Positions 1 through 19,690 of a DNA stretch of 64,000 nt are shown piece after piece. Position numbers and translations under genes: made by a program. This DNA comes from Escherichia coli (lineage in GTDB: Bacteria; Pseudomonadota; Gammaproteobacteria; Enterobacterales; Enterobacteriaceae): assembly GCF_041886205.1 (NCBI RefSeq), contig NZ_CP169029.1; one strand, 5' to 3'. The notes beneath the pieces are model-generated. The model was not told the origin of the DNA, searched no databases, and saw only the letters and a list, made by a program, of their open reading frames with translations. Every line of letters starts with the position of its first letter. Within the stretch, counting starts at the first letter, position 1.

Positions 1-1642
1 GACCTGTTTTCGGATTACGGTAACGATTTTCTGTGCCAAAACTCCCCATTCCGTGCCCCATCTGCAGGTTATTAATGCAGCCAAAGCTGGCGTTATCAAA
101 CAGCAGAATGGTGACCTTAATTCCCTCCTGTACGGCAGTTTGCAGCTCTGAGTGCAGCATCATGTACGAACCATCGCCTACCATGGCATACACCGGCTGC
201 TGAGGTTTTGCCAGCTTCGCACCAATAGCCGCTGCGACCTCATACCCCATGCAGGAGTAACCATACTCCAGATGGTAACTGTCAGGCGTTTTAACCTGCC
301 AGAGGCGTTGCAAATCCCCTGGCAGCGATCCGGCCGCCCCCACCACAATGGCGTTATCCTCAATATGCTGGTTAATGAGCCCCAACACCCGCGTCTGGGT
401 CAGGTGTGTGTTGAGCGTTTCACCGTATTCCATTAGCTGTGCATCAAGGTGCCCTGCCACTTCGGGAACGTCGTCAGGATGCCACTGGCGTTCCCACAGT
501 CGACAGCATTCATCGTGCCAAGCGGATTTCGCATGGGCAATCGCCTCCCCCCAGCCACTACGATAATCTTTCAGTGCGTGGGTCAACGCTGTCAGACCAG
601 TTCGGGCATCGGCAATGAGCGCGGTGGCATCCAGCTTCAAGGAGTCAAACTCAGCCACGTTCAGCAGCAGGAACTCGACGTCGGGATGAGAAAAGAGCGC
701 CTTAGAGCCGGTAGTAAAATCCGTCAGGCGCGTGCCGATGCCAATCACTAAGTCAGCCTGCGGCGCAAGCTGGTTGGCAGCCATTCCGCCCGTCACGCCC
801 ACCCCGCCCAGATTAAGCGGGTGGTCACTTACCAGCGCCCCCTTACCGGCCTGGGTTTCGGCAAACGGCAATTGCAGCACTTCAACAAATTCCCGTAACG
901 CCTCATGCGCACCGGAGTAACGCACGCCACCGCCGCACACCACCAGTGGACGGCGCTTGCGGGAAATCAATGCATGAGCCTGCGCCAGTCGCTGCGGGTC
1001 AGGCGGACGGCGTTCAATATGATGCACCCGACGCGCAAAGAAACTCAGGGGGTAATCCCAGGCCTCCCCCTGCACATCCTGAGGTAGGCAAATGGTCACC
1101 GCCCCTGTATTTGCGGGGTCAGTAAGCGTTCGCATCGCACTTAACATCGCGCTCATAAGCTGTTCAGGACGGTTGATGCGGTCCCAGTAGCGGGAAACCG
1201 GGCGGAAGCAATCGTTGGTACTGATGCTGAGATCGTGATACTGCTCGATCTGCTGCAACACGGGGTCAGGCTGGCGGCAGGCGTAGATATCCCCTGGCAG
1301 TAGCAGCAGTGGAATGCGGTTCGCCGTGGCCGTCGCTGCCGCCGTCACCATATTGGCAGCGCCAGGCCCAACGGATGAGGTGACAGCAAAAATACGCTGA
1401 CGGCGATGCTGTTTGGCGAATCCCGTCGCCATATGGGCAATCCCCTGCTCGTTACAGCCTTGCATCACCTGCAGATGACCAGGATCCTGCTCCAGCGCCT
1501 GGCCGATACCGAGCACGTTACCGTGCCCAAAGATCGTTGCCACGCCCTCCACAAAGGGCGTTTCTTTACCATCAACGCTAACATATTGTTGGTTAAGAAA
1601 TCTGACCAGAGCCTGGGCCATAGTCATACGTTCGGTTTGCAT
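1..1642 (-). CDS. iolD: ThDP-dependent IolD-like enzyme (3D-(3,5/4)-trihydroxycyclohexane-1,2-dione hydrolase family); partial, 3' end lies beyond window start
   Basis: Manual minus-strand translation from ATG at 1640-1642 gives [50 protein letters not shown]..., a ThDP-enzyme N-terminal domain; SD agggggtttt upstream; start abuts iolA stop. Confidence 0.65.
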
Positions 1643-1653
1643 AAAACCCCCTG

Positions 1654-3159
1654 TCAGCCCAGAGTCGGCATGGAGAACGCTGCACCTGTCTCCTGCTGCA
1701 TTTCCGGCCAGCGTGCAGTGATGGTTTTCATTCGGGTGTAGAAACGCACGCCATCGTTCCCGTGAACATTGAGCGCGCCAAAAATGGAACGTTTCCAGCC
1801 ACCGAAACAGTGGAATGCCATTGGCACCGGGATCGGCACGTTGACCCCCACCATACCCGCCTGCACCTCTTCACAAAAGCGGCGTGCGCAGCCACCGTCA
1901 CGGGTGAAAATGGCCGAGCCATTACCATATTCGTGTCGGTTAATCAGATCCACCGCGCTGGCGTAATCTGCTACGCGCACCACAGAAAGCACCGGTCCGA
2001 AAATTTCTTCTTTATAGATGGTCATCTCCGGGGTGACGTTATCGAACAGAGTCGGCCCAACGAAATAGCCCTGCTCGTGCCCTTTCACGCTGAGGCCACG
2101 CCCGTCCACACGCAGGTTAGCCCCCTGAGCTTCGCCACTGTCGATATAGCCCAACACTTTGCTGCGGTGTGCGGCGGAGATCAGCGGCCCCATCTCGTTT
2201 TCTGGCGTCTGGTTCAGGCCAGGTCCGACGCGCAGCGAAGCGATCTTTTTTTCCAGCCGGGCGCAGAGTTCATCAGCCGTTTTATCGCCAACCGCCACCA
2301 CCACGGAAAGCGCCATGCAGCGTTCTCCTGCCGCACCATAAGCTGCGCCCATTATGGCGTTTGTCGCCATATCCATATCGGCATCCGGCATTAAAATGCA
2401 GTGGTTTTTCGCACCGCCGAGCGCCTGACAGCGCTTACCGTGGGCGGACGCAGTCAGGTACATGTATTCGGCAATCGGTGTTGAACCGACAAAACTGACG
2501 GCCTGCACGCGCGGGTCGGTCAGGAGCACATCAACGGATTCTTTATCGCCCTGCACCACGTTGAATACGCCGTCCGGCAGGCCTGCCTCTTTCAGCAGTT
2601 TCGCCAGCGCGAGCGCCAGAGACGGATCTTTTTCCGACGGTTTCAGCACGAAGGTGTTGCCTGTCGCCAGAGCTATCGGGAACATCCACATTGGCACCAT
2701 CGCCGGGAAGTTAAACGGCGTGATCCCGGCGCAGACCCCGAGCGGCTGCATCAGTGAGTGGCTGTCGACACCTGTGCCAACGTTCGCAGAGTGTTCGCCT
2801 TTTTGCAGATGTGGGATGCCGCAGGCGAATTCTACCACTTCCAGACCACGGGTCAGTTCACCTACTGCATCTGAGAAGACCTTACCGTGTTCTTCACTGA
2901 TAATACGGGCCAGACGCACCATATTCTCTTCAAGCAACGCTTTGAAGCGGAACATCACACGCGCGCGCTTGAGTGGAGCAAAACGTGCCCACGCGGGAAA
3001 CGCCAACTGTGCTGCGGCAATCGCCTGTTCGGTTTCCTGTGCCGTACTCATCACCACCTGGCGAATCTGCTCGCCAGTGGCCGGGTTGAAGATAGCCTGA
3101 ATGCGCTGGCCTGAACCGGTGACACATTCGCCGTGAATAAAATTCGCTACCGTCTCCAT
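1654..3159 (-). CDS. iolA: CoA-acylating (methyl)malonate-semialdehyde dehydrogenase
   Basis: 501-aa ORF; ALDH-family hallmarks (VLKPSEKDP, catalytic Cys in GERCMALS); directly upstream of iolD-like gene. Confidence 0.8.
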
Positions 3160-3449
3160 CCTTAACCTCTCGCTGTTGATACGTGACTGTTACCTGAACG
3201 TTATGTACTGAACACTATATATGAAACAAATATTCCATTTTAAGTTGAAATAAAATAAATAATGATTATTGTGATCAAGGATGGATTTTTATGTGAACAG
3301 CCAGCATCACTGACTCAGCCTGAGCTATTAGGAGTTTCGGGCGAGGAAATGACTGAAGCTTCTGTTTCATTTTTGCTGCCAGGTGGATGGCCAACATTTA
3401 AAAGACGCGGTTTTGCGTTTAGAATCATGAGACTGGATAGGGGGATAAC

Positions 3450-4310
3450 ATGACGACAGCAACCAGCCTGAACGAACTACAAAAGCAAATCCGCGATCGC
3501 TACGATAGCCTGAGCAAAAGGCTGCAGCAGGTCTCCCGCTATGTACTGGATAATACGAACAGTGTCGCGTTTGATACGGTTGCGGTCATAGCCGAACGTG
3601 CCGATGTTCCACCCTCTACACTGATTCGTTTTGCCAATGCCTTTGACTTCACCGGCTTCAACGAAATGAAACAGTTATTTCGTATGCACCTGGTGGAGGA
3701 AACCGCCAGCTACAGCGATCGTGCGCGACTGTTCCGCGAAATGGAGAGCGAAGCCGTACCTGAAACGCCGCTCGATATTTTGCAGGAGTTCGCCAGTTCG
3801 AACTCGCAGGCGCTGCAGCAGTTGGCTGCCCGCGCCGAACCGGAGATGCTGGAGCACGCCGTACAACTACTGGCCTACGCCGACACCATTTACATCGCCG
3901 GATTACGCAGATCCTTTAGCATTGCTGCTTATCTTACCTATGCTTTAAGCCACCTAGAGTGCCGCCCTATTCTGCTTGACGGGATGGGCGGCATGCTGCG
4001 CGAACAGATCAGCCGTATTAAGGCGTGCGACATTGTGGTGTCGATCAGTTTCTCGCCGTACGCGGAAGAAACGGTGATGGTCAGCAAAACCGCCGCCAGC
4101 GTCGGCGCTCGGCAGATTGTGATTACGGATAGCCAGATCAGCCCACTGGCAACGTTCAGTGATCTCTGCTTTGTGGTGAAAGAGGCTCAGGTGGACGCAT
4201 TTCGGTCTCAGTCGGCAACATTGTGTCTGGTGCAGTCGTTAGTGGTCGCGCTAGCTTACCGTTTAGGAGATAAAAAACATAATAATACCCAGGAAAACAG
4301 TAACCAATAA
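3450..4310 (+). CDS. RpiR/MurR-family transcriptional regulator (IolR-like repressor candidate)
   Basis: 286-aa ORF, N-terminal HTH and C-terminal SIS-type sugar-phosphate-binding region; divergent from the iol catabolic genes. Confidence 0.75.
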   Translation: MTTATSLNELQKQIRDRYDSLSKRLQQVSRYVLDNTNSVAFDTVAVIAERADVPPSTLIRFANAFDFTGFNEMKQLFRMHLVEETASYSDRARLFREMESEAVPETPLDILQEFASSNSQALQQLAARAEPEMLEHAVQLLAYADTIYIAGLRRSFSIAAYLTYALSHLECRPILLDGMGGMLREQISRIKACDIVVSISFSPYAEETVMVSKTAASVGARQIVITDSQISPLATFSDLCFVVKEAQVDAFRSQSATLCLVQSLVVALAYRLGDKKHNNTQENSNQ

Positions 4311-4505
4311 TAACCAATGAACTCCTCCCCCGAGTCCATATAAGAGTAAATGATTCGGTGCCAGTAGCGATACAGACTTCAGATTGAATATCAACTGTAC
4401 TGCTATCTCCCTAAAAGGTCATGCCCCATGTGAGCGTACAACGAGAGCCTTAATCCTTAATAGCGAAGAAGATTTCTCTAGTAGGTGGTAATGTAACCCA
4501 GATAT

Positions 4506-4898
4506 AACGGCTTCTTTAAACAGTTTATTTACCATCGTTTTCTTACCTAGCAGGCGCTGAAGTTCTTTAATTTTATTCATGGCGGCAGCAAGTTCAGAGG
4601 CCGGAATACCCTGTTCTTCGGCTGTCACAGTAGTGAAGCTTCCTTCAAGGTAATGATACGCCAGAGAAATAACTGGCTGGCAGCCACACCGTGTTGCCGG
4701 GCAACAAGGGAGACCGTCATTCCCGGTTCAAAACTCTGCTGAACAATAGCGATCTTTTCCTGTGTAGTACGCCGTCTGCGTTTCTCCGGTCCTAAGACAT
4801 CAATCATCTGCTCTCCAATGACTAGTCTAAAAACTAGTATTAAGACTATCACTTATTTAAGTGATACTGGTTGTCTGGAGATTCAGGGGGCCAGTCTA
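4506..4898 (-). mobile_element. insC: IS2 remnant (IRL plus degenerate, frameshifted insC/orfA; insD deleted)
   Basis: Reverse complement of 4869-4898 reads TAGACTGGCCCCCTGAATCTCCAGACAACC (IS2 left IR); ORFs 4625..4852 and 4419..4628 together match IS2 InsC ([49 protein letters not shown]... [23 protein letters not shown]) with a frameshift; similarity stops near 4506. Confidence 0.75.
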
Positions 4899-4900
4899 TA

Positions 4901-5115
4901 CACTACCTCAGGTAGATGATGAGATCAGATACAGGGATCAACTGACGGTGAGCGCAGGCCCGCGAGTGCCCTGATTTAGCGCTGGTTTTGCTTTCCCATC
5001 GAAGGGCCCATACATCATCACGCCCGCGAAACAGTCGACAAAATAACGCAACTTTCTCATCCGTGGATAATACGGAAACGCACTGCACAGGACTCTGCGG
5101 TTTACGTCACCATTC
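4901..5115 (-). pseudogene. N-terminal fragment of an unidentified island gene, cut off at the IS2 end
   Basis: Minus-strand ORF ...VQCVSVLSTDEKVALFCRLFRGRDDVWALRWESKTSAKSGHSRAC... ends with a stop 3 nt before the IS2 IRL; second frame ORF 4938..5132 overlaps. Confidence 0.3.
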
Positions 5116-5328
5116 AATCCCATAAGCTTCAAGTTATGTTTGCCCTCAGTGCAGCTAATTCATCACTGTCAGATTTATGAACCATAGTCGTTACCTGTAT
5201 CCGATCCACTGAGGCACCACGGCAGAAATTCGGGTCCCCTACACTGATGACAAAGCCGCCCTCTTCTGCCTATTAACTCAAGCACCTCCCAACAACTTAC
5301 AGAAACTTAATCCTAATACAACTGTAAT

Positions 5329-5892
5329 TCAGTTGTGTCGTGGTCGGCCGCGGTTGCTTTTTTCGGGAAGCCTGCTACGGCCCAGAATAATACCGTGTTC
5401 TTTCTGATCCTGTTTAGCCAGATAGCTAAGGGCGTAACGTAAGTTGTCTACCGCGGACTTATCACTATAGTGCATCACGTGATCGATACGCACCGGGTAT
5501 TTGTCTTTAGCCCGGCAAAGGTGAAAGTAACCCTCCCCTTCCGTGATCTGCCTCCAGATATCTCCCAGTTGCCTGGATATCTGATAAGAGTTCTTGTGAC
5601 GTTGCCCATCCAGGTAGCCGACAAAATGAATATGAAGCCCTTTGTTTTGTGTATATTCCATTACCCAGTAATATCCCGCCAACATCGATTGGGTTTCGCT
5701 AAGTAAGCGGTATATTTCCATACACATACTGTGCTTACAGCCATGACCAAAACTGGGCGTGTCTTTCCTGTAGGCAAAATCAATTCTGAAAGGTAACAGT
5801 TTAGAAAAACGTTGAAACAGACCTTCCATGTGTTCATTCACGTCTTTCAGAATCATGAAGTCCATTTCGTAATTGGGATTAGCATTATACAT
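5329..5892 (-). CDS. YagK/YfjJ-family (inovirus Gp2-like) cryptic-prophage protein
   Basis: 187-aa ORF in same orientation as alpA and the split gene, matching CP4-57-type gene order (alpA - yfjI-like - yfjJ-like); family assignment from recalled sequence similarity only. Confidence 0.4.
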   Translation of the reverse strand: MYNANPNYEMDFMILKDVNEHMEGLFQRFSKLLPFRIDFAYRKDTPSFGHGCKHSMCMEIYRLLSETQSMLAGYYWVMEYTQNKGLHIHFVGYLDGQRHKNSYQISRQLGDIWRQITEGEGYFHLCRAKDKYPVRIDHVMHYSDKSAVDNLRYALSYLAKQDQKEHGIILGRSRLPEKSNRGRPRHN

Positions 5893-6858
5893 TTTATAGT
5901 CCTTACTTTATAAAACTGACAGGAAAGTGGAATTACATAAATACTGAGAGTACAGAAACGCCGTACCGCGGCATTAATAAACGAGGTAACCAGCAGCACA
6001 GACAACCTGATAAAACTGTTTCGTATTACCTCATTACAGTAATAGGGTAATGATTCAGAATACAGTAAGACTCTCTTAAACTGAGGACCAGAACGAATTA
6101 CAATAAAAAACACACCTCATATAATTGAGTTTAAGAAAGCACCATTCAATTACTTACAGGAAATAATCTGATCTTCACAAAAGTCAGCATTGAATAGCCA
6201 CAGGCAACATCGCTATTAGTATTGCCGTACCATTAAGTAAAAACAGAGACTCTGCAGAGAGAGCCTACAGATATTTAATCTCACAATAAGAAGATTATTT
6301 CATACAGAAAAGATTATATTTACCCATAAACTGTAACGGAGCTATAACGTACGAACTAAAGACAATATACTCTAATAGTGTTCTGGTACGTAACTAGTAT
6401 TAAATACAAACCAGACATACATTCAGTGGATTAACTTTCTCAATATTACGCTATAAGTGTAGTAACATAATTTACACATAACTAAACTCCATACACCACC
6501 ACACTGTAGTGTATGGAGATATATGTATTACGCACATACAGAATACTTAGCATAAAGAGGAGTGATATTACGATAGAAAGAGATAAGACAACATAACAGA
6601 TAACATAACTCCCATTAATAATACTAATTAACCTAAATTATTTATTGAACACGAAAACAATGAAGGCCCCACCTCACCTCAGACTAAAGCCGACAATATC
6701 CTGAGCAACACTCTATCCAATAGTAAATAGTGGTTACACCAGTTATATTTACTGACTGACCTGTACCAGAGTTTTCTAATACAACGCTGACATGGTAAAG
6801 ACATTAGTCTCCTCCGCAAGTAGCAGAGGAGACTATATGTACTCAACGATTAAGTCGT

Positions 6859-7191
6859 TCAGAGGTCAAAGTTAGGTGCGACACACAACGTTTTTCCCTC
6901 AATAACCGGTACAACTCTGTTTTGTTCATACAGTAAATCCAGTAACCAGTTGATTTTATCCTTTTTCCGGAAACGGTTCGGACCACGCTGTAAAATGTCA
7001 TTTTTTTTCATACAGAGGATCCCCTTCTCAATACAATAGCTTTTTATCCAGTTGAAAAGTTCAAGCTCCTCTGGAATGAGTCGCACAGGTACGGTCAGGG
7101 CAGAGTTGTCAAAAGTTAACGGATTAGACAACCGCACATACTCATTACCGTACCATATTGCTAATTCTCTCGCCATTTCTGCAGTGTAAGG
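6859..7191 (-). pseudogene. C-terminal part of island gene split by IS186 (YfjI/DUF3987-like, putative replication-associated)
   Basis: ORF 6859..7176 is in frame with ORF 8530..9660 once IS186 and one TSD copy are removed. Confidence 0.6.
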
Positions 7192-7202
7192 GGAAATATC
7201 CC

Positions 7203-8541
7203 CATAAGCGCTAACTTAAGGGTTGTGGTATTACGCCTGATATGATTTAACGTGCCGATGAATTACTCTCACGATAACTGGTCAGCAATTCTGGCCCATA
7301 TTGGTAAGCCCGAAGAACTGGATACTTCGGCACGTAATGCCGGGGCTCTAACCCGCCGCCGCGAAATTCGTGATGCTGCAACTCTGCTACGTCTGGGGCT
7401 GGCTTACGGCCCCGGGGGGATGTCATTACGTGAAGTCACTGCATGGGCTCAGCTCCATGACGTTGCAACATTATCTGACGTGGCTCTCCTGAAGCGGCTG
7501 CGGAATGCCGCCGACTGGTTTGGCATACTTGCCGCACAAACACTTGCTGTACGCGCCGCAGTTACGGGTTGTACAAGCGGAAAGAGATTGCGTCTTGTCG
7601 ATGGAACAGCAATCAGTGCGCCCGGGGGCGGCAGCGCTGAATGGCGACTACATATGGGATATGATCCTCATACCTGTCAGTTCACTGATTTTGAGCTAAC
7701 CGACAGCAGAGACGCTGAACGGCTGGACCGATTTGCGCAAACGGCAGACGAGATACGCATTGCTGACCGGGGATTCGGTTCGCGTCCCGAATGTATCCGC
7801 TCACTTGCTTTTGGAGAAGCTGATTATATCGTCCGGGTTCACTGGCGAGGATTGCGCTGGTTAACTGCAGAAGGAATGCGCTTTGACATGATGGGTTTTC
7901 TGCGCGGGCTGGATTGCGGTAAGAACGGTGAAACCACTGTAATGATAGGCAATTCAGGTAATAAAAAAGCCGGAGCTCCCTTTCCGGCACGTCTCATTGC
8001 CGTATCACTTCCTCCCGAAAAAGCATTAATCAGTAAAACCCGACTGCTCAGCGAGAATCGTCGAAAAGGACGAGTAGTTCAGGCGGAAACGCTGGAAGCA
8101 GCGGGCCATGTGCTATTGCTAACATCATTACCGGAAGATGAATATTCAGCAGAGCAAGTGGCTGATTGTTACCGTCTGCGATGGCAAATTGAACTGGCTT
8201 TTAAGCGGCTCAAAAGTTTGCTGCACCTGGATGCTTTGCGTGCAAAGGAACCTGAACTCGCGAAAGCGTGGATATTTGCTAATCTACTCGCCGCATTTTT
8301 AATTGACGACATAATCCAGCCATCGCTGGATTTCCCCCCCAGAAGTGCCGGATCCGAAAAGAAGAACTAACTCGTTGTGGAGAATAACAAAAATGGTCAT
8401 CTGGAGCTTACAGGTGGCCATTCGTGGGACAGTATCCCTGACAGCCTACAAAACGCAATTGAAGAACGCGAGGCATCGTCTTAACGAGGCACCGAGGCGT
8501 CGCATTCTTCAGATGGTTCAACCCTTAAGTTAGCGCTTATG
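7203..8541 (+). mobile_element. IS186 (IS4 family), complete 1339-bp copy
   Basis: 23-bp terminal inverted repeats CATAAGCGCTAACTTAAGGGTTG at 7203-7225 and 8519-8541 (rc); flanked by 11-bp direct duplication GGAAATATCCC at 7192-7202 and 8542-8552 in a GGGG-N6-CCCC target. Confidence 0.85.
7252..8370 (+). CDS. insL: IS186 transposase (DDE, IS4 family)
   Basis: 372-aa ORF with C-terminal YRLRWQIELAFKRLK motif typical of IS4-family transposases; lies between the IS186 inverted repeats. Confidence 0.85.
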   Translation: MPMNYSHDNWSAILAHIGKPEELDTSARNAGALTRRREIRDAATLLRLGLAYGPGGMSLREVTAWAQLHDVATLSDVALLKRLRNAADWFGILAAQTLAVRAAVTGCTSGKRLRLVDGTAISAPGGGSAEWRLHMGYDPHTCQFTDFELTDSRDAERLDRFAQTADEIRIADRGFGSRPECIRSLAFGEADYIVRVHWRGLRWLTAEGMRFDMMGFLRGLDCGKNGETTVMIGNSGNKKAGAPFPARLIAVSLPPEKALISKTRLLSENRRKGRVVQAETLEAAGHVLLLTSLPEDEYSAEQVADCYRLRWQIELAFKRLKSLLHLDALRAKEPELAKAWIFANLLAAFLIDDIIQPSLDFPPRSAGSEKKN

Positions 8542-9660
8542 GGAAATATCCCCCTCTTCACCGCTCGAATGGTAAATAAGTCCTGCCAGTCTTGCCATAT
8601 ACTCTGCATTTTTAGCAGCATATTCCCGGCAATGTCTTAAAGGCCCCAATCCCCCCAGCTTCGATTCCACATCATTGTAATAATCCGTCCAGATTCTGGC
8701 AGCCTGAGGAGAAAAGTGAAGGCAACGTCGTTCACCACTCATCGCCAGACTTTCATCAATAAGCTCATTGATCCTCTCTTCAAACAAATCCTGATACTGT
8801 GATGAATAATTATCTCCGGTTATTATCCTTGTCCCCTGCGTTGATGTTGGTTGACACATCAAAAACCTTGCATGATGTCCTGACGTTTTCACAATTTCTT
8901 TTTTTCGCGTACAAAAACCTTTGTGGTAAACATCAGGCTGAATCATCACCGATATCGTCAGTCTTGGCTCCTTCAAATTAATTCCGGGAGATGATTTCCT
9001 GTCGATGAAAAGAGAACCTCCATCCCACAAAGTGTTAATAATTCCCAGTTTACTCATGGCCCGGCTGTCAAAAATTACCCCCCCTTCACTGGATACAAGA
9101 GCAAAAGAGCGATTGCTGTCGGAATAATATTTTAACATTCCCTCTATCGTTGTCTCATTAAAAATTGTTCGACGTATCTGCGGCGGAACAGGAGGTTTAT
9201 TCAGATGCGTTTCAAGCTCTGATTCTGTTGCCTTGTAATCTTTACCGGCACGAATCTCTTTATGAAATTTTGATTCCAGCGCTTTTTGTTTTTGCTCCCA
9301 TATTTCCTTTTCTGTACTGTAATTCTCAACCAGTTTCGCGTATTCTTCCGCCAGGGCTTCATCCCTGAGATAAAATGCTTTCATAAACACTTTATCCACG
9401 GTCGTTTTCCTTTCACCGGAATCAGCCAGAATCAGAGAGTAAAGATTAACAGGCCCATGTAAATTTCCAGGTCTGCACACGTCAATCTGATTCTGACAGG
9501 CAATTGAGATCGCTGTTAATGCGGATGTTGCCACCATAGCCAAAGGTGCCTGTGTATTTTTTTGAGTTTCAATTATTGCATTTCTCACCAGCGGTGGTAG
9601 TGCATATATCGGATAAGGATTTTCTGGTGCAAGTAAGCACATAAAAGCCTCTCTTTTCAT
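8542..9660 (-). pseudogene. N-terminal part of island gene split by IS186 (YfjI/DUF3987-like); as-is ORF reads into the IS to a stop at 8530
   Basis: 376-aa ORF 8530..9660; last codons (EEGDISHKR) are encoded by TSD and IS186 IR; reconstructed uninterrupted gene would be 483 aa. Confidence 0.6.
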
Positions 9661-9674
9661 TAATGGGTTAGTAA

Positions 9675-9717
9675 AATAGCAGCAAATCCCGCTACAATAG
9701 CGAAAATAGCTGCTATT
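9675..9717 (-). promoter_or_regulatory. Nested palindrome (AATAGCAGC-N24-GCTGCTATT with inner CGCTA-CAA-TAGCG) in leader of the split gene; candidate operator
   Basis: Seen directly, 15-57 nt upstream of start codon at 9660; repeated in the duplicated copy at 10141-10180. Confidence 0.4.
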
Positions 9718-9860
9718 CAGACCTGATGCTCTGAGAAATACAGAGCATTTGTAGATCTGATGTTTAATAAACCGATAAGGTTAATTCAGTGAAGACTGTA
9801 TTATTCACCACGAAATATCATTCATATTTCTCATTCTTAATACCTCCAGAAATTATTTCA

Positions 9861-10190
9861 CTAATACCTTTCCCCCGGTCTTTTCCCTTTCTCCAGAACC
9901 ATAGTGTAAATATTAACGGCCCCACGTAAATTTCCGGGACTGCATACGTCAACCTGATTCTGACAGGCAATTGACATCGCTGTTAATACTGACATTGCAA
10001 CCAGAGTCAGAGGTACTTGTTTATTGTATTGAGCTTTAATTATTGCCTTCCCTATCATTGATGGTCATGCATATACTGAATACGGCATATCCGGTTTGAT
10101 GTAAGACATAAATGCTTCCTTTTTCGTAATACGTTTCGGTTATAGCAGCAATTACCGCTACAATAGCGACAATAGCTGCTCTTTCAACAA
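9861..10190 (-). repeat. Partial tandem duplication of the 5' end and leader of the split island gene (truncated paralogous ORF 9861..10058)
   Basis: 9861-10190 aligns to 9380-9730 at roughly 85% identity by eye; ORF 9861..10058 (MIGKAIIKAQYNKQVPLTLVAMSVLTAMSIACQNQVDVCSPGNL...) parallels the N-terminus of ORF 8530..9660. Confidence 0.6.
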
Positions 10191-10284
10191 TGAATGCTGG
10201 AAATTCTGTTTATCAATTAAACTTCTGGATAAATTGTTCTTATGCTTCTTTTTCCTCCTGAGGTGATCACGTGATGACAAAAAC

Positions 10285-10593
10285 TTATCTGCTCATGGTC
10301 ATATCTGAAGAAAGCGTATGTCGCACTTCGTCATTAACACCTTTGACTGCTGATCTGGCAGGTACAGTATGTAAAGTAAGCCATTCGTCAATAGCTGATG
10401 AACGCCAGCCCACAGAACCACTACCAAGACGTACCGGCCTGGGGAAGGTTGCATCGTAGTATTTCGATAACGGATTCATTTTTTCGTAAATTGTCGAACG
10501 AGATATACCTAACAATTGGCTCAGTTCAGGCATCCGTAAGATGCGTGAAGGAGTCCAGCAGTATCCGGATTGATCTGGCATTTTATCCCCCAT
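10285..10593 (-). CDS. alpA: AlpA-family phage/island HTH regulator (start codon uncertain; alternatives at 10581 or 10665)
   Basis: Contains ILRMPELSQLLGISRSTIYEKMNP...YDATFPRPVRLGSGSVGWRSSAIDEWL, matching the AlpA signature (YDATFP...SVGW...EIDEWL). Confidence 0.6.
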   Translation of the reverse strand: MGDKMPDQSGYCWTPSRILRMPELSQLLGISRSTIYEKMNPLSKYYDATFPRPVRLGSGSVGWRSSAIDEWLTLHTVPARSAVKGVNDEVRHTLSSDMTMSR

Positions 10594-10789
10594 AGTGTGG
10601 TGAACTGTCGTTACAGTTTGTATTCCCCGGGTAAATTTGTCTGCGTAAAAAAATGGGCTGAGCAAAAAGACAATAAATAATTAAAAATCAATACGATAGA
10701 AAACAACAGCATTATTGTTATTTTACTTTCACCTTATCGCTGTCGATTCTCATTATCATTCATTGGTAAAAAACAGCAAAAGAGGCCCT

Positions 10790-11553
10790 GGTAATGACTC
10801 CAGTCAGTAGTACAGTGTTTTCGACAAATGAACCAATGGCTTTTCGTGAATTTCCAGGGAGCGTGAAAAGCAAATCGTTTTCCGGGCTGGTCGTTTGATG
10901 TGAGTACGAAGTGTCAGATTGTTGCACTCAATGCGCCGGGTAAATATCTTGCCGACAAGATGCTTATCCTGTGGCATTTCTCTGGTATAACTGCTCCGGT
11001 TGTCTCTGGTTATCATGCCTGTGGAGAATGGCTTCAGGAGTTCCGGCAACTCACGACATGTTTCATCAGTGCGAGGACCAAAAGTGTAAGCCAGCACACC
11101 TCCAGATTTGGTGTTATACGCATACCAGTGCCACTGCTGACGAGCTTTGTTTTCGACAAAACTCCATTGTTCATCAAGTTCGCAGATAAGCGTCACATCG
11201 GCACTGGCGACTGGAGATGTGGTTACTTTGCGTGGTGAGCGTTTTATAAAGTGAGAATGACGGTGTTGATATCCACCTTCAGCGTTCTGGAACTATCGCG
11301 AACCCCGACTCCGTTATGAACCATTTCAACAATTTGCTCTTTAATGCCTGGTTTTCGGGTTTCGTAGATGTAATTCAGTTGAAATACACACGTTTGCAGG
11401 ATTAGCACTGGAAACGCTCATGATCTGAGGTGCTGTGATCATAATGGTACACTTTATAGGAATTACAGCTGGGAGAATGTACTGTAACTGTTGCCATATG
11501 GTCTCCAGATACCAATAGAATACCACATTAATCTATCGTCAGAAGGCATCACC
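10790..11553 (-). mobile_element. Degenerate IS1-family element (764 bp; insA frameshifted, insB N-terminal region degenerate)
   Basis: Terminus GGTAATGACTCC at 10790; ORF 10804..11196 matches IS1 InsB C-terminal half (QWHWYAYNTKSGGVLAYTFGPRTDETCREL...KTICFSRSLEIHEK); manual translation upstream gives InsA-like MATVTVHSPSCNSYKVY... then, after a frameshift, LNYIYETRKPGIKEQIVEMVHNGVGVRDSSRTLKVDINTVILTL; other terminus ...GCATCACC at 11546-11553. Confidence 0.65.
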
Positions 11554-11693
11554 GGGGCCTTCTGACATAATCTGTTAATACGTGTACTATTACCCTGTTC
11601 AGAAAATATTGATTCAAAAATGAAAACCAGTTAACAGAAAAGCAAAATGATATAATGTTAAAATTTTATATAGTGCAATAAAAGGAGAATGTT

Positions 11694-13511
11694 ATGTATA
11701 ATTTTATCACTATAATGTATGATGTCTTTTCATGTTTTGGTGTTCTGGCTAAAAACCAGAATACCCGTGACATCCGAAATATTAAAAATTTTTCCTCACA
11801 TCAATATTCACTGGGCGACATGTTTGATGAATTAATAAACATTATTGATAAAGAACAAGTATTGAGTACAGAACAACGAAAAGTTATATTTAGGAGATAT
11901 GAAGATCTCTATGTTAAGCTAATGCACTATTCTGTTTTTACAGACCAAACACATCAAATAATAAAACAAAAATATTTTAATGACATTGTACCAATGATTC
12001 TCGCACTCGACATCAGGAACACATATCGCCCGGATAATGAGATGGCATTTTACTATCATATTCATTCTTTTCTCACTCAGATACCGGATAATGAGGATGA
12101 TATATATCATGCTGCAAGGACATATCTGCGAAATTACGTTAAGTTATGTTTATCCGGATACACACCAGCGAATGCGCATTTCAAAGATATCTTTGATGGC
12201 GTATATGAATTCATTCGTAATATTCGCAAAAACAGTACACCAGGAAAAACAAAACTTATCGCAACTATCAACACATGCAAAGAAACCTGTAAACATCTGC
12301 TTTATTTAAGTAATGAAGACAAGGAAAAAATAATTTCTGACTTAGATAAAGTTCAGGTTGCATGTTATTATCTCACTATATTACTGGCTTTCGAAAGACG
12401 AACTTCATTAACAAGCACCCTGGCAACTTTATATAAAATGCTGATAAGCGAAAGAGAAGTTTCAGAATATGAATGCCAGTTATTATATTTAACCAACCCA
12501 ATAGATGTAATGAATATACTGAACAAATACATATATTACTTTCCTAATGAAAACTCACCATTTTATACACTGAAAATTGACAGTGCATTATCGTGGGATG
12601 CCATTGACGCAATACGAGACTATAGTATTTCTGATATTTATCTTTATCCTGAACAAAAAACAATAAATTGTGTCGTTGAGATTGAAAACATTGTCTTTGG
12701 CGGTTACATTTATACATTGAACAACGGCGTCACATTACAAAACATAGAAAACACTTTAAAAGATTCTTCATGCCATTATGTCTTAAATGGCTATACAGAA
12801 TTTGTTAACTGTTTGATACAACTTACTTCAGGAAAGACTGAAAGTGTTCATCGCACCATCAATAAACTGAACTATGAGAAATTACCTTTTGGATTTATCA
12901 TTGCCGCGTTTGCTATACTAAAGATAGCATTTAAAATAAAATTCAGTAAAAATCATGTAAATATCCGAGCATTATTAAATGACATCAATTATTTTATGAC
13001 TTATCAGGGCGAGTCCATTAACCTTATTTCACTGGATCACGAATACCCAGAGTCCTGTCTTCAAAATGACACAAACACATATTTATTAGGAAGAGTAATA
13101 TTTCTGTATAACTCAATGATTTATAAGTTCATAAACTGTCAGGAACATGAAACCAATAACATTCACTCAGCTATGATAAATAACCTATTACAGGAAGTTG
13201 ATATAGCCCTTGGTAAAATAAATAACATTATAGACAGCAGAAACATATCAGCCCCCCATGAACTGGCAAATATTCTTACCCGCGAAAAAATACTTACAAC
13301 ACGGGAAAAAAAAGGAAACCTGATAAGCCTGTTTGATGGATTCACTTTATTCCATTGTGTTGGAATGATAACCTTTCTTATCCATTATCTCAGAACACCT
13401 GAAGAAAAAGTTGAAAATATATTTATGTTATATGGTGCAGATAAAAACAATAAACTACGCAGAAGACTGATTTATGACGCACTAGGAATAATTCAGTCTC
13501 AGCAGGAGTGA
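11694..13511 (+). CDS. Hypothetical 605-aa protein, AT-rich cargo gene in the int-alpA hotspot; no recognisable catalytic motif
   Basis: Long uninterrupted ORF in very AT-rich DNA; SD aaaggaga 5 nt upstream of ATG; TATAAT at 11651-11656; convergent with integrase. Confidence 0.7.
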   Translation: MYNFITIMYDVFSCFGVLAKNQNTRDIRNIKNFSSHQYSLGDMFDELINIIDKEQVLSTEQRKVIFRRYEDLYVKLMHYSVFTDQTHQIIKQKYFNDIVPMILALDIRNTYRPDNEMAFYYHIHSFLTQIPDNEDDIYHAARTYLRNYVKLCLSGYTPANAHFKDIFDGVYEFIRNIRKNSTPGKTKLIATINTCKETCKHLLYLSNEDKEKIISDLDKVQVACYYLTILLAFERRTSLTSTLATLYKMLISEREVSEYECQLLYLTNPIDVMNILNKYIYYFPNENSPFYTLKIDSALSWDAIDAIRDYSISDIYLYPEQKTINCVVEIENIVFGGYIYTLNNGVTLQNIENTLKDSSCHYVLNGYTEFVNCLIQLTSGKTESVHRTINKLNYEKLPFGFIIAAFAILKIAFKIKFSKNHVNIRALLNDINYFMTYQGESINLISLDHEYPESCLQNDTNTYLLGRVIFLYNSMIYKFINCQEHETNNIHSAMINNLLQEVDIALGKINNIIDSRNISAPHELANILTREKILTTREKKGNLISLFDGFTLFHCVGMITFLIHYLRTPEEKVENIFMLYGADKNNKLRRRLIYDALGIIQSQQE

Positions 13512-13698
13512 AACGTTAAAACAGGCAAATTGTTTTTTATAAATAGGAGATTGTTGAGTAATCCCCTGTTTATAAAAATACGCTTTCCTGACGATCTGAT
13601 AATTATCAGCTCAATACATTTGACATAAAAGCGGTTCCTTAATTACTACTGCCACGATCACATATCAAATCATGATCGTACAATATACATTTTCACTA

Positions 13699-14901
13699 TT
13701 ATTTATTCACAATTTGAGACATCACATAATCCGCCCATGCCTGCATCATCGGTACACGCTGCTCCAGTAGATCAGTACGATGATATGCCGCCTCAACCTT
13801 ATTTTTCAGCGTATGAGCGAGCGCCCTTTCCGCCAGATCCCGCGAATACCCCTGTTCACTACACCAGTCCCTGAATGTTGAGCGAAAACCATGTGCCGTG
13901 GCAACTCGCCCCGGAATGTCACTGACGGCTTTCTTTTTACGCAGAAAACTTGTCAACACCATATCGGAAAGGATCTGCTGCTTTCTGGGTGAAGGGAACA
14001 CCAGTTCATCATGCAGGCCACGTATATTTTCCAGAATGTAAATAGCCTGCCGGGATAAAGGAACACGATGCTGTAGCCTGGCTTTCATTCTTTCTGCAGG
14101 TATAGTCCATACCCGCTTATGAAAATCAATTTCAGCCCAGCGCATTCCCCTGGCTTCGCCCGAGCGAGTTGCTGTAAGTATCACCATTAATAACAGTGCG
14201 CGGGTAACATTATAAGGTTCATCACTATACACACTGGTCGCCACAAAAAGCGGTAACTGCCTCCAGGGCATTGCTGGTTGGTGTTCATCACGTCCTCTTG
14301 TCTGCTGAGGAAGCAAATGGTCAACCACATCAACAGGATTTGCCACACAAAAACCGTGCGCCCATCCCCACTGCATAACAACATGAATGCGCTGTTTAAC
14401 CCGGCTTGCCGTTTCTGACAAGGTTAACCAGACTGGACGCAGTGTTTCTGCCACGTCCGCAGCCGTAATCGAATCCAGCGTTTTTGCTCCCAGTTGAGGA
14501 AACGCGTAATTCTCAAGCGTCGATAACCACTGCCTTACATGCTTTGGATTTTCCCATCCTGGAGACAATTCTGCATGTACACGCCTGGCTGCATCGGCAA
14601 ATGTTGGGATAACGACTTTCTCAGATTCAGCCTTTTTAATCTCCAGAGGATCATCACCTGCAGCAAGTTGCTCTCGCATTATCCGGGCAGTACGTGCAGC
14701 TTCAGCAATACTGACCTCTGGGTAAGTTCCCAATCCAGCATTACGTCTTTTTTGTGTCACCGGACTTACATAACGAAAAACCCATTTCCCCCGCCCCTTT
14801 ACTGAAGAAGGATGAAGGGTCAGTCCGGTAATTCCCCCATGGGGCAATGGTTTGTCATCAGGTTTGATATGTCTTGCTTTCGTATCCGTCAATACTGCCA
14901 T
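13699..14901 (-). CDS. int: Tyrosine site-specific integrase, P4/CP4-57 IntA-like
   Basis: 400-aa ORF; N-terminal LTDTKARHIKP...FRYVSP arm-binding-type region and C-terminal catalytic motifs (HGFRSTFRDW, LAH, Y in EAAYHR). Confidence 0.9.
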   Translation of the reverse strand: MAVLTDTKARHIKPDDKPLPHGGITGLTLHPSSVKGRGKWVFRYVSPVTQKRRNAGLGTYPEVSIAEAARTARIMREQLAAGDDPLEIKKAESEKVVIPTFADAARRVHAELSPGWENPKHVRQWLSTLENYAFPQLGAKTLDSITAADVAETLRPVWLTLSETASRVKQRIHVVMQWGWAHGFCVANPVDVVDHLLPQQTRGRDEHQPAMPWRQLPLFVATSVYSDEPYNVTRALLLMVILTATRSGEARGMRWAEIDFHKRVWTIPAERMKARLQHRVPLSRQAIYILENIRGLHDELVFPSPRKQQILSDMVLTSFLRKKKAVSDIPGRVATAHGFRSTFRDWCSEQGYSRDLAERALAHTLKNKVEAAYHRTDLLEQRVPMMQAWADYVMSQIVNK

Positions 14902-15044
14902 ACGCTAATTCCCGTCACTCTGGTATGCCATCCAGTATGCCATTAGTCTCTCGCTTCACTAAGAATACATTAGATAATATCGGACAACAAAAAGTGTAAT
15001 ACATTGTTTATAATGAAATTATATAACACCCCTGGATTAAGTCA

Positions 15045-15525
15045 GATTTATTTCAGGCGGTCCCCCTCACCGCCATATTTAAAGAAGAGCTCGTACGAAA
15101 GTACGGGCTTTTTTTTCGTATATTGCACACACCGGGGGGATGAGAATCCCCGACCGGGGGTCGACAACTGGCGGCAGCCAGTTGGACAGACCGTGAACGC
15201 AGTGAGCGGGCTGCCCGCAGGGCGAGCGAAGCGAGTCAATCCCCCCCTCACCGCCATATTTAAAGAAGAGCTCGTACGAAAGTACGGGCTTTTTTTTTCG
15301 TATATTGCACACACCGGGGGGATGAGAATCCCCGACCGGGGGTCGACAACTGGCGACAGCCAGTTGGACAGACCGTGAACGCAGTGAGCGGGCTGCCCGC
15401 AGGGCGAGCGAAGCGAGTCAATCCCCCCCTCACCGCCATATTTAAAGAAGAGCTCGTACGAAAGTACGGGCTTTTTTTCGTGTATTGCACACACCGGGGG
15501 GATGAGAATCCCCGACCGGGATACT
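15045..15525. repeat. Tandem direct repeat array, unit about 181 bp, about 2.7 copies
   Basis: Units begin near 15061, 15241 and 15421 with near-identical sequence; each has a terminator-like hairpin plus T-run (gagctcgtacgaaagtacgggcttttttt) and hairpins GGGGAT-GAGA-ATCCCC and CAACTGGC-N4-GCCAGTTG (loop differs between copies, stem conserved). Confidence 0.9.
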
Positions 15526-15528
15526 TAG

Positions 15529-16215
15529 TTAATGCAACGGTTCACTCTTTGTCGCCGCGACTAATGGGCGAATTTTGTCACGAGTCTCCCAGACCGGAGG
15601 GATTTCCTCCAATTTAGTGACAGAAGCTCGTACAAAAGGCACTCGTGCAAGAGTCATAATCGTATCCAACCAACGGTCACGAATAATGCGATCCGCCCTT
15701 TCATGACTCGGGTCATCCAGCTCAATAACACAGACTATTTTATTGTTCTTCTTTGAAACCAGAACATAATCCATTGCCATGCCATTATAAATTGCAAAGA
15801 AACGCTTTCTTTCTTCTTCGCTAAACTCAGGTTGTTCTGGATAGTTGAGCAAGCGCCCCAGAGAGACCTGGCAATGGATATGACAATAATGTCCAAACCA
15901 TTTCTCCAGATTATCGAAATACATTTTTTCACAACGCGTGATTAACCACTCTTTTCCTTCCAATAAAATACCTTCGGCAACCATTCCCTGAAATAACTCA
16001 TCTCGTTCTTGCCAACGAGAGTCACGATAGGTTTTCTGCGGTATATAGGTCCTTGTCGACGACTTAGCAGCAGGGGAAGTTGCAGATGAAGGGACTGGTT
16101 GCGATTTAGCGATGATTACCGATGAGGCAACTTTTCGGAGTGTCAATTTTCTGGCAACAGCAAAACCGGCGACAAATGCAATTGTCAAACAAGTTACAAA
16201 AGCCATAAAGCTCAT
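15529..16215 (-). CDS. Membrane-anchored protein with DUF2726-like (nuclease-fold) C-terminal domain
   Basis: 228-aa ORF: N-terminal hydrophobic helix, Ser/Pro-rich linker, C-terminal globular domain; family call from recalled similarity only. Confidence 0.45.
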   Translation of the reverse strand: MSFMAFVTCLTIAFVAGFAVARKLTLRKVASSVIIAKSQPVPSSATSPAAKSSTRTYIPQKTYRDSRWQERDELFQGMVAEGILLEGKEWLITRCEKMYFDNLEKWFGHYCHIHCQVSLGRLLNYPEQPEFSEEERKRFFAIYNGMAMDYVLVSKKNNKIVCVIELDDPSHERADRIIRDRWLDTIMTLARVPFVRASVTKLEEIPPVWETRDKIRPLVAATKSEPLH

Positions 16216-16761
16216 AATTAATTTTCACTTATCCATGTTGATTATATTTCATTACCAATGTTACTCGCTGAAGCGTGTTACATGCCAACAATGCAACGAT
16301 CAATATATAGTTAGTATCATGTTTTGATTATTACAACCATCCCTATTTTGCCATTGCAGCTTGCCTTCCACAAAAAAAATAACAACAAACAATATTAGCC
16401 AAAGAATTAATTAAGATTAACCTTGCATTTATAATATTATCCCTAAAGAATAAATCAGAGGAATATATTCGGTGTTAATCAGTCAGTCAAATTATGGCCC
16501 ATTGTTGATTAAACCTCATAAGCAAAATTGGCACCAGATCTCCTGTACAGGTTGAATGGCCGAAAAAAGATAGGCAGATGCTCGCTTTTTTGGCTTCTGG
16601 AAGAAAAACTCTCCGCACTGGCAGTATTACACTGGTCTGATGCTATGACGAAAAATGCCTGGTAAGAGTATCTAAACCAGACTCCAGTTCAGCTTATCAA
16701 CACGCTCAAAGTCGCCCCCCTGAACGCTAACCTGAAGTTAAAGTCTTTGCTGTTAATGAAA

Positions 16762-16790
16762 TAAAACAAAGCCCGGTTCGCCCGGGCTCT
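16762..16790 (-). terminator. Intrinsic terminator downstream of phoH
   Basis: GC hairpin AGCCCGG-TTCG-CCCGGGCT followed on the minus strand by a T-rich run. Confidence 0.5.
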
Positions 16791-16805
16791 GCACCGATAA
16801 CACAC

Positions 16806-17729
16806 TTAACTGTATGCATGCAGCGTACGTTGGCAAAGTGCCGAACGTACGCAATCCTCTTTACCGAACCGGACGATCCCAACCATTTCATCTTCTTCGA
16901 AACGTTCCAGCGCGTCACTTAATCCGGAGCACACGCCGCGAGGCAAATCGCATTGCGTGATATCACCGTTGACGATAACTGTCACGTTCTCCCCGAGGCG
17001 GGTTAAAAACATTTTCATTTGCGCGGCAGTCACATTCTGCGCCTCGTCAAGAATGACGACTGCATTTTCAAAGGTACGTCCACGCATATAGGCGAAAGGC
17101 GCAATTTCCACCTTCCCTATTTCCGGTCGCAGGCAGTACTGCATAAAGGAAGCCCCTAAGCGCCGGACCAGCACGTCGTAAACCGGGCGAAAATAGGGAG
17201 CAAACTTTTCTGCGATATCTCCAGGTAAGAAGCCAAGATCTTCATCGGCTTGCAGAACTGGACGGGTGACGATAATCCTGTCGACATCCTTATGTATCAG
17301 GGCCTCTGCCGCTTTTGCTGCGCTGATCCAGGTTTTTCCGCACCCGGCTTCGCCCGTGGCGAATATCAGCTGCTTACTCTCAATAGCCTTCAGATAGTGC
17401 AATTGCGCTTCATTACGCGCGAGGATGGGCGAAGTATCGCGACTGTCGCGGGCCATACCAATGGCTTCTACGCCGCTCATTTGCACAAGCGAGGTGACCG
17501 ATTCTTCTTCACGCTGCTTATGGCTGCGCGAATCCCGTCTCAGCACACGTTTTGCCTCGCGACGAGCTTTGATCACTGCTTTTTGTCTTCCCATGGAGAG
17601 CACCTTGAGTTGTTTGTATTCATCACACGCGCCGTTGGCAGCGCGATTATGCGCACGAACATCAGAGGGTTGGCTTCCTTGTAAGCCATAGTTTGCTTTT
17701 GGATAAAATGCCGAAAAACGGCTACGCAC
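16806..17729 (-). CDS. phoH: PhoH ATPase core ORF; N-terminal extension appears frameshifted, so the full gene would span 16806..17869
   Basis: ORF with Walker A GEAGCGKT; separate upstream ORF 17573..17869 (MVTSYTGHVLDNQ...) with SD ggag overlaps it in another frame. Confidence 0.8.
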   Translation of the reverse strand: MRSRFSAFYPKANYGLQGSQPSDVRAHNRAANGACDEYKQLKVLSMGRQKAVIKARREAKRVLRRDSRSHKQREEESVTSLVQMSGVEAIGMARDSRDTSPILARNEAQLHYLKAIESKQLIFATGEAGCGKTWISAAKAAEALIHKDVDRIIVTRPVLQADEDLGFLPGDIAEKFAPYFRPVYDVLVRRLGASFMQYCLRPEIGKVEIAPFAYMRGRTFENAVVILDEAQNVTAAQMKMFLTRLGENVTVIVNGDITQCDLPRGVCSGLSDALERFEEDEMVGIVRFGKEDCVRSALCQRTLHAYS

Positions 17730-18017
17730 ACCGTTTGCGGCGTCGGTAACACGAGTAAAGAGAGGAAGTGAGAAAAATACAGAGTGACGAAGTTGCTACC
17801 GGAGGAGAAAACTCCGCGAGTGGTGGCGCGTTGATTATCTAAAACATGTCCAGTATAGGACGTTACCATCCGCGATCTCCATAGTGACTGACTATCACTG
17901 CCGGGAACTTCCGCTGCTACTTAATAAGTACAACAGATCTCGCATTTATTGCAACAATATATTTACTTATATTTAACTATAAAACACCATTTTAGTGACA
18001 TTAGTTTCTACTGGAAA

Positions 18018-18036
18018 GATGACAGAGTGATGACAG
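18018..18036 (-). promoter_or_regulatory. Pho box (PhoB site) in phoH promoter
   Basis: Reverse complement reads CTGTCATCACTCTGTCATC, two tandem CTGTCAT half-sites, about 150 nt upstream of the ATG at 17869. Confidence 0.6.
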
Positions 18037-18070
18037 TGATGAAAAAAGCTGTGTGCTTTCAGCAGGATTT

Positions 18071-18400
18071 GCATCAGGCATCAGTGCACGATCGCCGGAT
18101 GCGGCGTAAACGCCTTATCCAGCCTACCAAACCCGCACCGATTATAGGCATGATAAGACGCGCAAGCGTCGCATCAGGCATCAGTGCACGATCGCCGGAT
18201 GCGGCGTAAACGCCTTATCCAGCCTACCAAACCCGCACCGATTGTAGGCATGATAAGACGCGCAAGCGTCGCATCAGGCATCAGCGCACGAACGCCGGAT
18301 GCGGCATCAACGCCTTATCCCGCCTACCGAACCCGCACCGATTGTAGGCATGATAAGACGCGCAAGCGTCGCATCAGGCATCAGCGCACGAATGCCTTAT
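18071..18400. repeat. BIME/REP array (three units of about 110 bp containing GCCGGATGCGGCGTAAACGCCTTATCC)
   Basis: Three near-identical copies of canonical REP palindromes between phoH promoter and efeB. Confidence 0.85.
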
Positions 18401-18413
18401 TCGCCTAAAAACA

Positions 18414-19685: not shown

Positions 19686-19690
19686 AACGC

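Follow-up and report, generated by a model that had tools for sequence, protein, structure and literature searches.

Genes at 1-4310 and the cluster they belong to

The window considered here, meaning the whole analyzed stretch of 64,000 nucleotides from Escherichia coli contig NZ_CP169029.1, begins with three genes assigned to myo-inositol catabolism: iolD, iolA and, divergent from iolA, the regulator gene iolR (Table 1). An original prediction, made from the DNA letters, had seen at 1-4310 an IolD-like thiamine diphosphate (ThDP) enzyme, a CoA-acylating dehydrogenase and an RpiR regulator, and family models bore out all three (TIGR04377, TIGR01722, and HTH_6 with SIS, respectively). The open reading frame (ORF) of iolD at 2-1624 on the minus strand, 541 residues long, reached 840 bits on the equivalog model TIGR04377 against a cut-off of 715, despite being truncated, compared with at most 197 bits on the acetolactate synthase models, every one of which stayed far under its cut-off. 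All three ThDP-enzyme domains (Pfam TPP_enzyme_N, M and C) were matched. The start codon at 1642 was transferred by alignment from the annotated genome ZYB62, whose iolD (locus L001, 19717-21642) is 100% identical to the part in the window, and it leaves 547 of the 641 codons inside; the product is 3D-(3,5/4)-trihydroxycyclohexane-1,2-dione acylhydrolase.

Upstream of iolD in the same operon, with 11 nt between its stop codon and the iolD start, lies iolA. Its product scored 673 bits on TIGR01722 (cut-off 448.5) and 460 bits on Pfam Aldedh, and its solved relatives are led by PDB 4zz7 (705 bits), with 1t90 of Bacillus subtilis at 487 bits. IolR combines an N-terminal Pfam HTH_6 domain of the rpiR type (38 bits) with a C-terminal sugar-phosphate-binding SIS domain (62 bits), both above cut-off, and its relatives in the PDB, among them 3sho and 4ivn, belong to the RpiR family of regulators. 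The GC content is 54-60% over iolD and iolA and drops to 33-48% rightward.

The remainder of the cluster was read in near-identical genomes, chiefly ZYB62 and JML285, which are 100% identical to the window over 1-4400 (a wider set is 99.7-100% identical). Upstream of iolD, both carry iolG, annotated as inositol 2-dehydrogenase; the binding protein, ATPase and permease of an ATP-binding cassette (ABC) transporter; a second dehydrogenase, of the Gfo/Idh/MocA family; an iolC-iolJ fusion annotated as bifunctional 5-dehydro-2-deoxygluconokinase/aldolase; iolE; and iolB. In these annotated genomes the cluster is compact, with 11 genes in 14.6 kb. The binding protein matches PDB 4rxm at 454 bits and 4irx at 240 bits, both of which we take to be myo-inositol-binding proteins, and the best solved match of the second dehydrogenase is 5ya8, a scyllo-inositol dehydrogenase (327 bits). 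With iolD and iolA added to these upstream genes, every established step of the pathway is covered, and the inositol-catabolic reading of the original prediction is supported. The predicted order of the cluster is iolR, the divergent iolA-iolD, iolG, the ABC importer, the second inositol dehydrogenase, iolC/J, iolE and iolB, and the iolA-iolD-iolG order is retained in most of the 85 loci compared. Positions 1-4310 are thus very probably the iolR end of a compact myo-inositol catabolic cluster of the Enterobacterales type, complete and acquired horizontally, for which we infer activity, inducer, operator binding and CRP input.

The pathway steps are taken from the established iol biochemistry of B. 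subtilis and Salmonella. The ABC system would bring inositol in, IolG would oxidize it to 2-keto-myo-inositol and IolE would dehydrate the latter. Ring opening by the ThDP enzyme IolD would give 5-deoxy-glucuronate, to be isomerized by IolB, after which the IolC-aldolase fusion would phosphorylate the product and cleave it to dihydroxyacetone phosphate and malonate semialdehyde; IolA would convert the semialdehyde to acetyl-CoA and CO2. IolR would repress the iolA-iolD and iolG-iolB operons through an 18-bp near-palindrome. The SIS domain suggests a phosphosugar inducer, and repression would probably be lifted when this domain binds the phosphorylated intermediate 2-deoxy-5-keto-D-gluconic acid 6-phosphate (DKGP), as proposed for IolR of Salmonella, which is an RpiR-like repressor (PMC4513076) with DKGP as its putative inducer (PMC5349611).

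Table 1. Features of the iol segment and of the adjoining part of the island (positions in the window).
Feature	Position	Strand	Remarks
iolD, 5' part	1-1642	-	Residues 1-547 of 641; C-terminus past the window start
iolA	1654-3159	-	501 aa CoA-acylating malonate/methylmalonate-semialdehyde dehydrogenase; TIGR01722
Divergent iolA/iolR control region	3160-3449		290 bp
iolA-iolD promoter-like site	3214-3243	-	-35 TTAAAA (3243-3238), 18-nt spacer, -10 TATAGT (3219-3214); consensus scan
Candidate IolR operator O_A (block 1)	3221-3238		ATGAAACAAATATTCCAT; 18-bp near-palindrome, consensus ATGAAAyAnnnrTTyCAT
Invariant block 2	3268-3276		ATTGTGATC; CRP half-site-like
Weaker second operator-like site (block 3)	3353-3370		CTGAAGCTTCTGTTTCAT; 80-97 nt upstream of the iolR ATG
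iolR promoter-like site	3397-3425	+	TTTAAA, 17 nt, TAGAAT; consensus scan
iolR	3450-4310	+	286 aa RpiR/MurR-family regulator, divergent from iolA
Operator-like motif copy inside iolR	3666-3683		ATGAAACAGTTATTTCGT; codons M73-R78
Degraded transposase gene (insertion sequence scar)	4419-4852	-	Annotated as frameshifted and incomplete in ZYB62 and JML285; right edge of the iol module
P4-like integrase module, rest of island	4900-15136		Collinear with ZYB62
Tyrosine integrase	13699-14901	-	Domain match NF007246

Island setting, distribution and alternative readings

The similarity to the clusters of Enterobacter, Lelliottia and Citrobacter stops at about 4260-4270, the end of iolR, and the GC content of 57.0% in the iol cluster compares with 40.5% in the right flank (40-45% in the flanks overall). 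Insertion sequence (IS) scars bound the cluster on both sides. Beyond the one on the right, the degraded transposase gene, comes the P4-like module, with a TOTE-primase fragment, a Gp2-like gene, a YfjI-family gene, an AlpA-like helix-turn-helix gene, an IS1 remnant, an ORF of 605 amino acids and the tyrosine integrase; the core genes phoH (16806-17729), efeBOU, putP, putA and the rut operon lie to the right of the island. The window is collinear with ZYB62 over 1-15136, save for an IS186 insertion at 7204-8540. In ZYB62, the cluster is part of a contiguous accessory block of about 70 kb that runs from a tRNA-Ser gene (serX) to ycdU and also holds toxin-antitoxin genes, Ag43, a type I restriction system with DarTG and several copies of IS66 and IS3. 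The integrase end abuts ycdU in that genome but DUF2726-phoH in the window (13699-15136; 15529-17729), and the integrase/DUF2726-phoH junction is part of window 4300-29000, which about 262 genomes match over 80% or more of its length. Genome JML285 departs from the window after 4871 and has IS3, a helicase gene and cdiA as its right flank. Strain C10 covers 93% of window 4300-29000, has no iol genes there and carries its iol cluster elsewhere; next to phoH (locus L086), the same integrase module accompanies a different cargo of the sugar-acid type, with a LacI regulator, a transporter of the major facilitator superfamily (MFS), and mandelate racemase-like, short-chain dehydrogenase/reductase and dihydrodipicolinate synthase-like genes.

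From this layout, the iol module is most likely interchangeable cargo of a mosaic, IS-shuffled island and not the neighbor of that island. The original prediction had spoken of accessory content directly adjacent to the island; accessory it is, but iol more likely lies inside the same mosaic island than next to it. It could still be argued that the iol module is a separate, older insertion which abuts an unrelated integrase island, so that two elements stand side by side, and the variable right flank of iolR (the P4-like module in the window and ZYB62 versus the IS3, helicase and cdiA of JML285) as well as the separation of integrase module and iol cluster in C10 speak in its favor. However, ZYB62 keeps both within the one serX-ycdU block with no core genes between them, and no core gene separates iolR from the integrase in the window, which makes two unrelated elements rather unlikely. 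One mosaic island assembled by IS-mediated shuffling accommodates both the one-element and the two-element views. A tRNA scan of the 64-kb window and of the ZYB62 locus L001 found none, so no tRNA boundary can be placed in the window, and an Rfam scan of window 1-16000 found no RNA family, including no small RNA of the Salmonella island.

Some further details of the island were recorded. The IS186 copy (transposase ORF 7252-8370) splits the YfjI-family gene, which is of the DUF3987 type, into 6859-7176 and 8530-9660, and its two flanks overlap by about 13 bp on the uninterrupted gene of ZYB62, consistent with a target-site duplication. The ORF of 605 amino acids beside the integrase (11694-13511, plus strand, about 30% GC) has no annotation beyond hypothetical protein in ZYB62 or C10, and a search of NCBIfam with it found no match. 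In the ZYB62 block (locus L087, 21462-30096), a DarT/DarG toxin-antitoxin pair sits between the S and R genes of a type I restriction-modification system.

In a megablast search with window 1-4400, 56 of 5,426 complete E. coli genomes gave a match and 50 covered at least 80% of the query; none of the 56 is a K-12 strain, which confirms the earlier statement that K-12 lacks the module. A sensitive blastn search of the complete E. coli genomes, aimed at divergent iol clusters such as that of strain ED1a, added among the matches listed only short ones to the aldehyde dehydrogenase paralogues puuC/gabD and was uninformative about the ED1a type. Of the 50 genomes with the whole 4.4-kb segment, 49 also have 80% or more of the 14.6-kb cluster, 42 times on the chromosome at 99% identity or more and seven times on a plasmid at 88.8%. 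Many of the carriers came from cattle, calves and poultry, a tally in which sampling bias was not controlled. The rarity agrees with the survey of Weber and Fuchs, who found an iol cluster in less than 2% of 20,632 E. coli genomes (PMC9430895); beyond that survey, a literature search for this cluster type in E. coli specifically found nothing.

To place the cluster among other bacteria, IolR was scanned against one genome per prokaryotic species, from which the best 80 loci, all at least 73% identical, were taken and the eleven E. coli proteins placed on them by tblastn. The IolR orthologues are 73-96% identical and divergent from iolA in most of these species loci, and no Salmonella chromosomal locus is among the best 80. 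The same order, with divergent iolR and iolA-iolD-iolG, recurs in Enterobacter, Lelliottia, Citrobacter (including C. koseri), Yersinia (including Y. pestis), Edwardsiella, Pectobacterium, Dickeya, Brenneria, Photorhabdus, Xenorhabdus and Providencia. The nearest relatives, from Enterobacter, Lelliottia and the closest Citrobacter species, show 91-99% protein identity and only about 89% DNA identity, so none of the species sampled stands out as a recent donor. The plasmid-borne variant, 88.8% identical in DNA to the cluster here and 92% identical to Lelliottia and Enterobacter cloacae, is a separate lineage, carried by IncF plasmids in E. coli of pig and human origin. On one such plasmid, pRHB13-C14_2 (CP055725.1, locus L003), it occupies 5993-20195 and adjoins IS66 and a group II intron; close by is a gene (26005-26132) with the annotation cholera enterotoxin subunit B that is probably similar to heat-labile toxin (LT-like). 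A related iol cluster is found on a plasmid of Yersinia ruckeri (L004).

The substrate deserves separate thought, as the true one might be another cyclitol (scyllo-inositol, D-chiro-inositol or a derivative) with myo-inositol taken up on the side, which is what the match of the second dehydrogenase to a scyllo-inositol dehydrogenase could hint at. Against this stand an IolG annotated as inositol 2-dehydrogenase, the binding protein whose nearest solved relatives are, as assumed above, myo-inositol binders, and Citrobacter koseri, which has an orthologous cluster (L016) and is cited as a myo-inositol user (PMC9430895). A different primary substrate appears improbable, and the two readings are compatible in any case.

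Several observations weigh against the main reading. The window stops inside iolD, and the genes upstream of it are known only from near-identical genomes; IolR found no specific NCBIfam equivalog above cut-off; and partial clusters account for about 7 of the 56 E. coli matches, among them LH50-c, whose best match spans 56% of the cluster in two places, strain 744 with a cluster remnant, and three further genomes with an iolR fragment only. The cluster here could likewise be a remnant, truncated or disrupted by an IS upstream of the window, which would leave the three genes as non-functional leftovers; partial clusters of this kind and the heavy IS scarring of the island (IS66, IS3, IS1 and IS186) give that thought some footing. 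Nevertheless, the 49 of 50 genomes mentioned above pair the full segment with most of the cluster, and all three genes in the window are intact, with 100% identity to genes that carry no pseudogene flag, so that a remnant is very improbable and a complete cluster remains the preferred reading. Last, the view that the ThDP enzyme is an acetolactate-synthase-like protein unrelated to inositol and the dehydrogenase an MmsA that serves valine, beta-alanine or propionate-type catabolism, which could appeal to TIGR01722 as a subfamily model spanning both MmsA and IolA and to the methylmalonate-semialdehyde dehydrogenase label of the closest solved structures, is effectively refuted by gene context and by the IolD scores given above: the identical genomes show iolG, iolE, iolB, iolC and an inositol-type transporter, neither mmsB nor an AraC-type MmsR occurs in the window or in ZYB62 and JML285, where iolD and the RpiR regulator are the neighbors, so this is not an mmsAB operon, and the valine or beta-alanine context which the original prediction had named as its refutation was seen in none of the 85 loci compared.

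The iolA-iolR control region and a candidate operator

When the spacer between iolA and iolR was aligned across 16 genera, three conserved blocks stood out and the remainder was variable. An ORF of 63 amino acids at 3262-3453 was rejected as a gene, as it falls in the variable part of this alignment. A loose pattern recovered block 1, the candidate operator, from 69 of 74 spacers. A weight matrix built from block 1 alone (37 distinct sequences) was then run over all loci with a threshold of 12 bits, and a match at or above that threshold was present in the iolD-iolG spacer of 56 of the 57 loci; its distance to the start codon of iolG was mostly 40-59 nt. The density of matches per kb was 4.0 in the iolD-iolG spacer, 1.4 in the iolA-iolR spacer with the training site excluded, and 0.06 outside both. 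Within the 64-kb window, the degenerate motif occurs only at 3221 and 3666, with 0.43 occurrences expected by chance, and in ZYB62 it occurs twice in the region upstream of iolG. The candidate operator occupies the spacer between the -35 and -10 hexamers of the predicted iolA promoter, which is a classical position for a repressor site; the positions of these promoter-like hexamers are largely conserved across the genera aligned, and transcription of iolA would start near 3207.

In block 2, GTGATC is invariant in 16 of 16 genera and the flanking ATT nearly so. The TGTGATC block was rejected as a full CRP site, as the second half-site is not conserved, and was kept as either a half-site or a -10 element; in the latter case, CACAAT could serve as the -10 hexamer of another leftward promoter-like match (3297-3268). 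A putative CRP site here would be centered at about 3277.5, some 70.5 bp upstream of the presumed iolA start, and would fit class I activation. It is the right half of block 3, TGTTTCAT, that is conserved among the genera aligned, and an extra matrix match appears in the iolA-iolR spacer of 26 of 74 loci, with 17 of those matches at the distance of block 3 from iolR. The TAGAAT of the iolR promoter-like site, or TACAAT in its place, is conserved in most of the genera aligned, and transcription of iolR is predicted to start near 3432.

A further copy of the motif lies inside the iolR coding sequence, where its position is conserved in 25 loci and it overlaps the conserved peptide NEMKQLFR; the K74 codon within it is AAA in 46 of 46 orthologues. 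Since the copy overlaps a conserved peptide, a regulatory role is inseparable from coding constraint. The iolD-iolG spacer of ZYB62 (locus L001, 19636-19675) also holds a GC-rich hairpin, CCCCTCTCCC-gtt-GGGAGAGGGG followed by GGTGAGAGG, that is flanked by two operator-like sites and resembles the enterobacterial repetitive extragenic (boxC-like) elements.

Two points should temper the operator assignment: block 3 of E. coli is weak and stays under the 12-bit threshold, and the motif, assigned by its conservation, is AT-rich. All in all, ATGAAAyAnnnrTTyCAT stands an even chance of being the operator of the enterobacterial RpiR-type IolR, at 3221-3238 and 40-59 nt upstream of iolG, perhaps together with the CRP-like half-site at 3268-3276 and the copy at 3666-3683. 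For Salmonella, no consensus IolR site had been found according to the 2015 study of Hentchel et al. (PMC4513076), so the candidate would give this family a concrete operator that can be tested. It may already be catalogued in curated regulon databases.

Significance and comparison with known systems

Most of what is described here is ordinary and already known, as the pathway and the cluster family are well described, the genes are named singly in the RefSeq annotation and the rarity in E. coli has been published; the significance beyond annotation is little. What is new, and only mildly so, is the candidate operator with its promoter layout, a small by-product that is directly testable and cheap to check. 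The cluster does explain why a small minority of E. coli, around 1% of the complete genomes, would be inositol-positive, and it is an example of a catabolic module that travels as exchangeable cargo, both in integrase islands with IS scars and on IncF plasmids. Plant-fed guts are rich in inositol, the end product of phytate breakdown, and the iol cluster is plausible as a niche-adaptation trait and possible strain marker. The window also holds two core genes of related function, agp (glucose-1-phosphatase/inositol phosphatase; 36062-37327, minus strand) and appA (4-phytase; 61253-62581, minus strand), at 32 kb and 57 kb from iol; the nearness of phytate-degrading genes is probably a coincidence, because the insertion site of the island sets the position.

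Among known systems, the alphaproteobacterial iol regulon of Caulobacter and Sinorhizobium (IbpA/IatA/IatP) has an ABC importer of the same family and an RpiR-type IolR, as is the case here. The operator reported for the alphaproteobacterial IolR is GGAA-N6-TTCC, unlike the ATGAAAyAnnnrTTyCAT motif of the present cluster; the former is absent from the iolA/iolR control region, and its sole copy in the 64-kb window is at 18548. The iolABCDEFGHIJ operon of B. subtilis follows the same chemistry (IolG, E, D, B, C, J and A), and IolA is homologous to the IolA/MmsA of that organism (1t90). In contrast to the cluster in E. coli, the B. subtilis operon has an IolR of the DeoR and not the RpiR type, MFS transporters, and separate iolC and iolJ genes.

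The myo-inositol island of Salmonella uses IolT transporters of the MFS, whereas the cluster described here has an ABC importer. Salmonella Typhimurium GEI4417/4436 shares the pathway enzymes, an RpiR-type IolR repressor and the horizontally acquired island (PMC4513076, PMC5349611), but is larger and laid out in several operons, with the activator ReiD and with SrfJ (PMC9430895), as opposed to the one compact cluster here. Neither reiD nor srfJ was found in the annotated genomes ZYB62 and JML285, which sets the cluster apart from the Salmonella type of island, and the cluster of E. coli ED1a, which is of the Salmonella-like type (PMC9430895), is likewise different. The closest counterpart is the compact iol cluster of the Enterobacterales, as known from Enterobacter, Lelliottia, Citrobacter including C. 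koseri, Yersinia, Edwardsiella and Pectobacterium, which has the same gene order, orientation and promoter blocks as the cluster at the start of the window, and which in E. coli is a rare cargo of islands, at about 1% of the complete genomes, and not a trait of the species.

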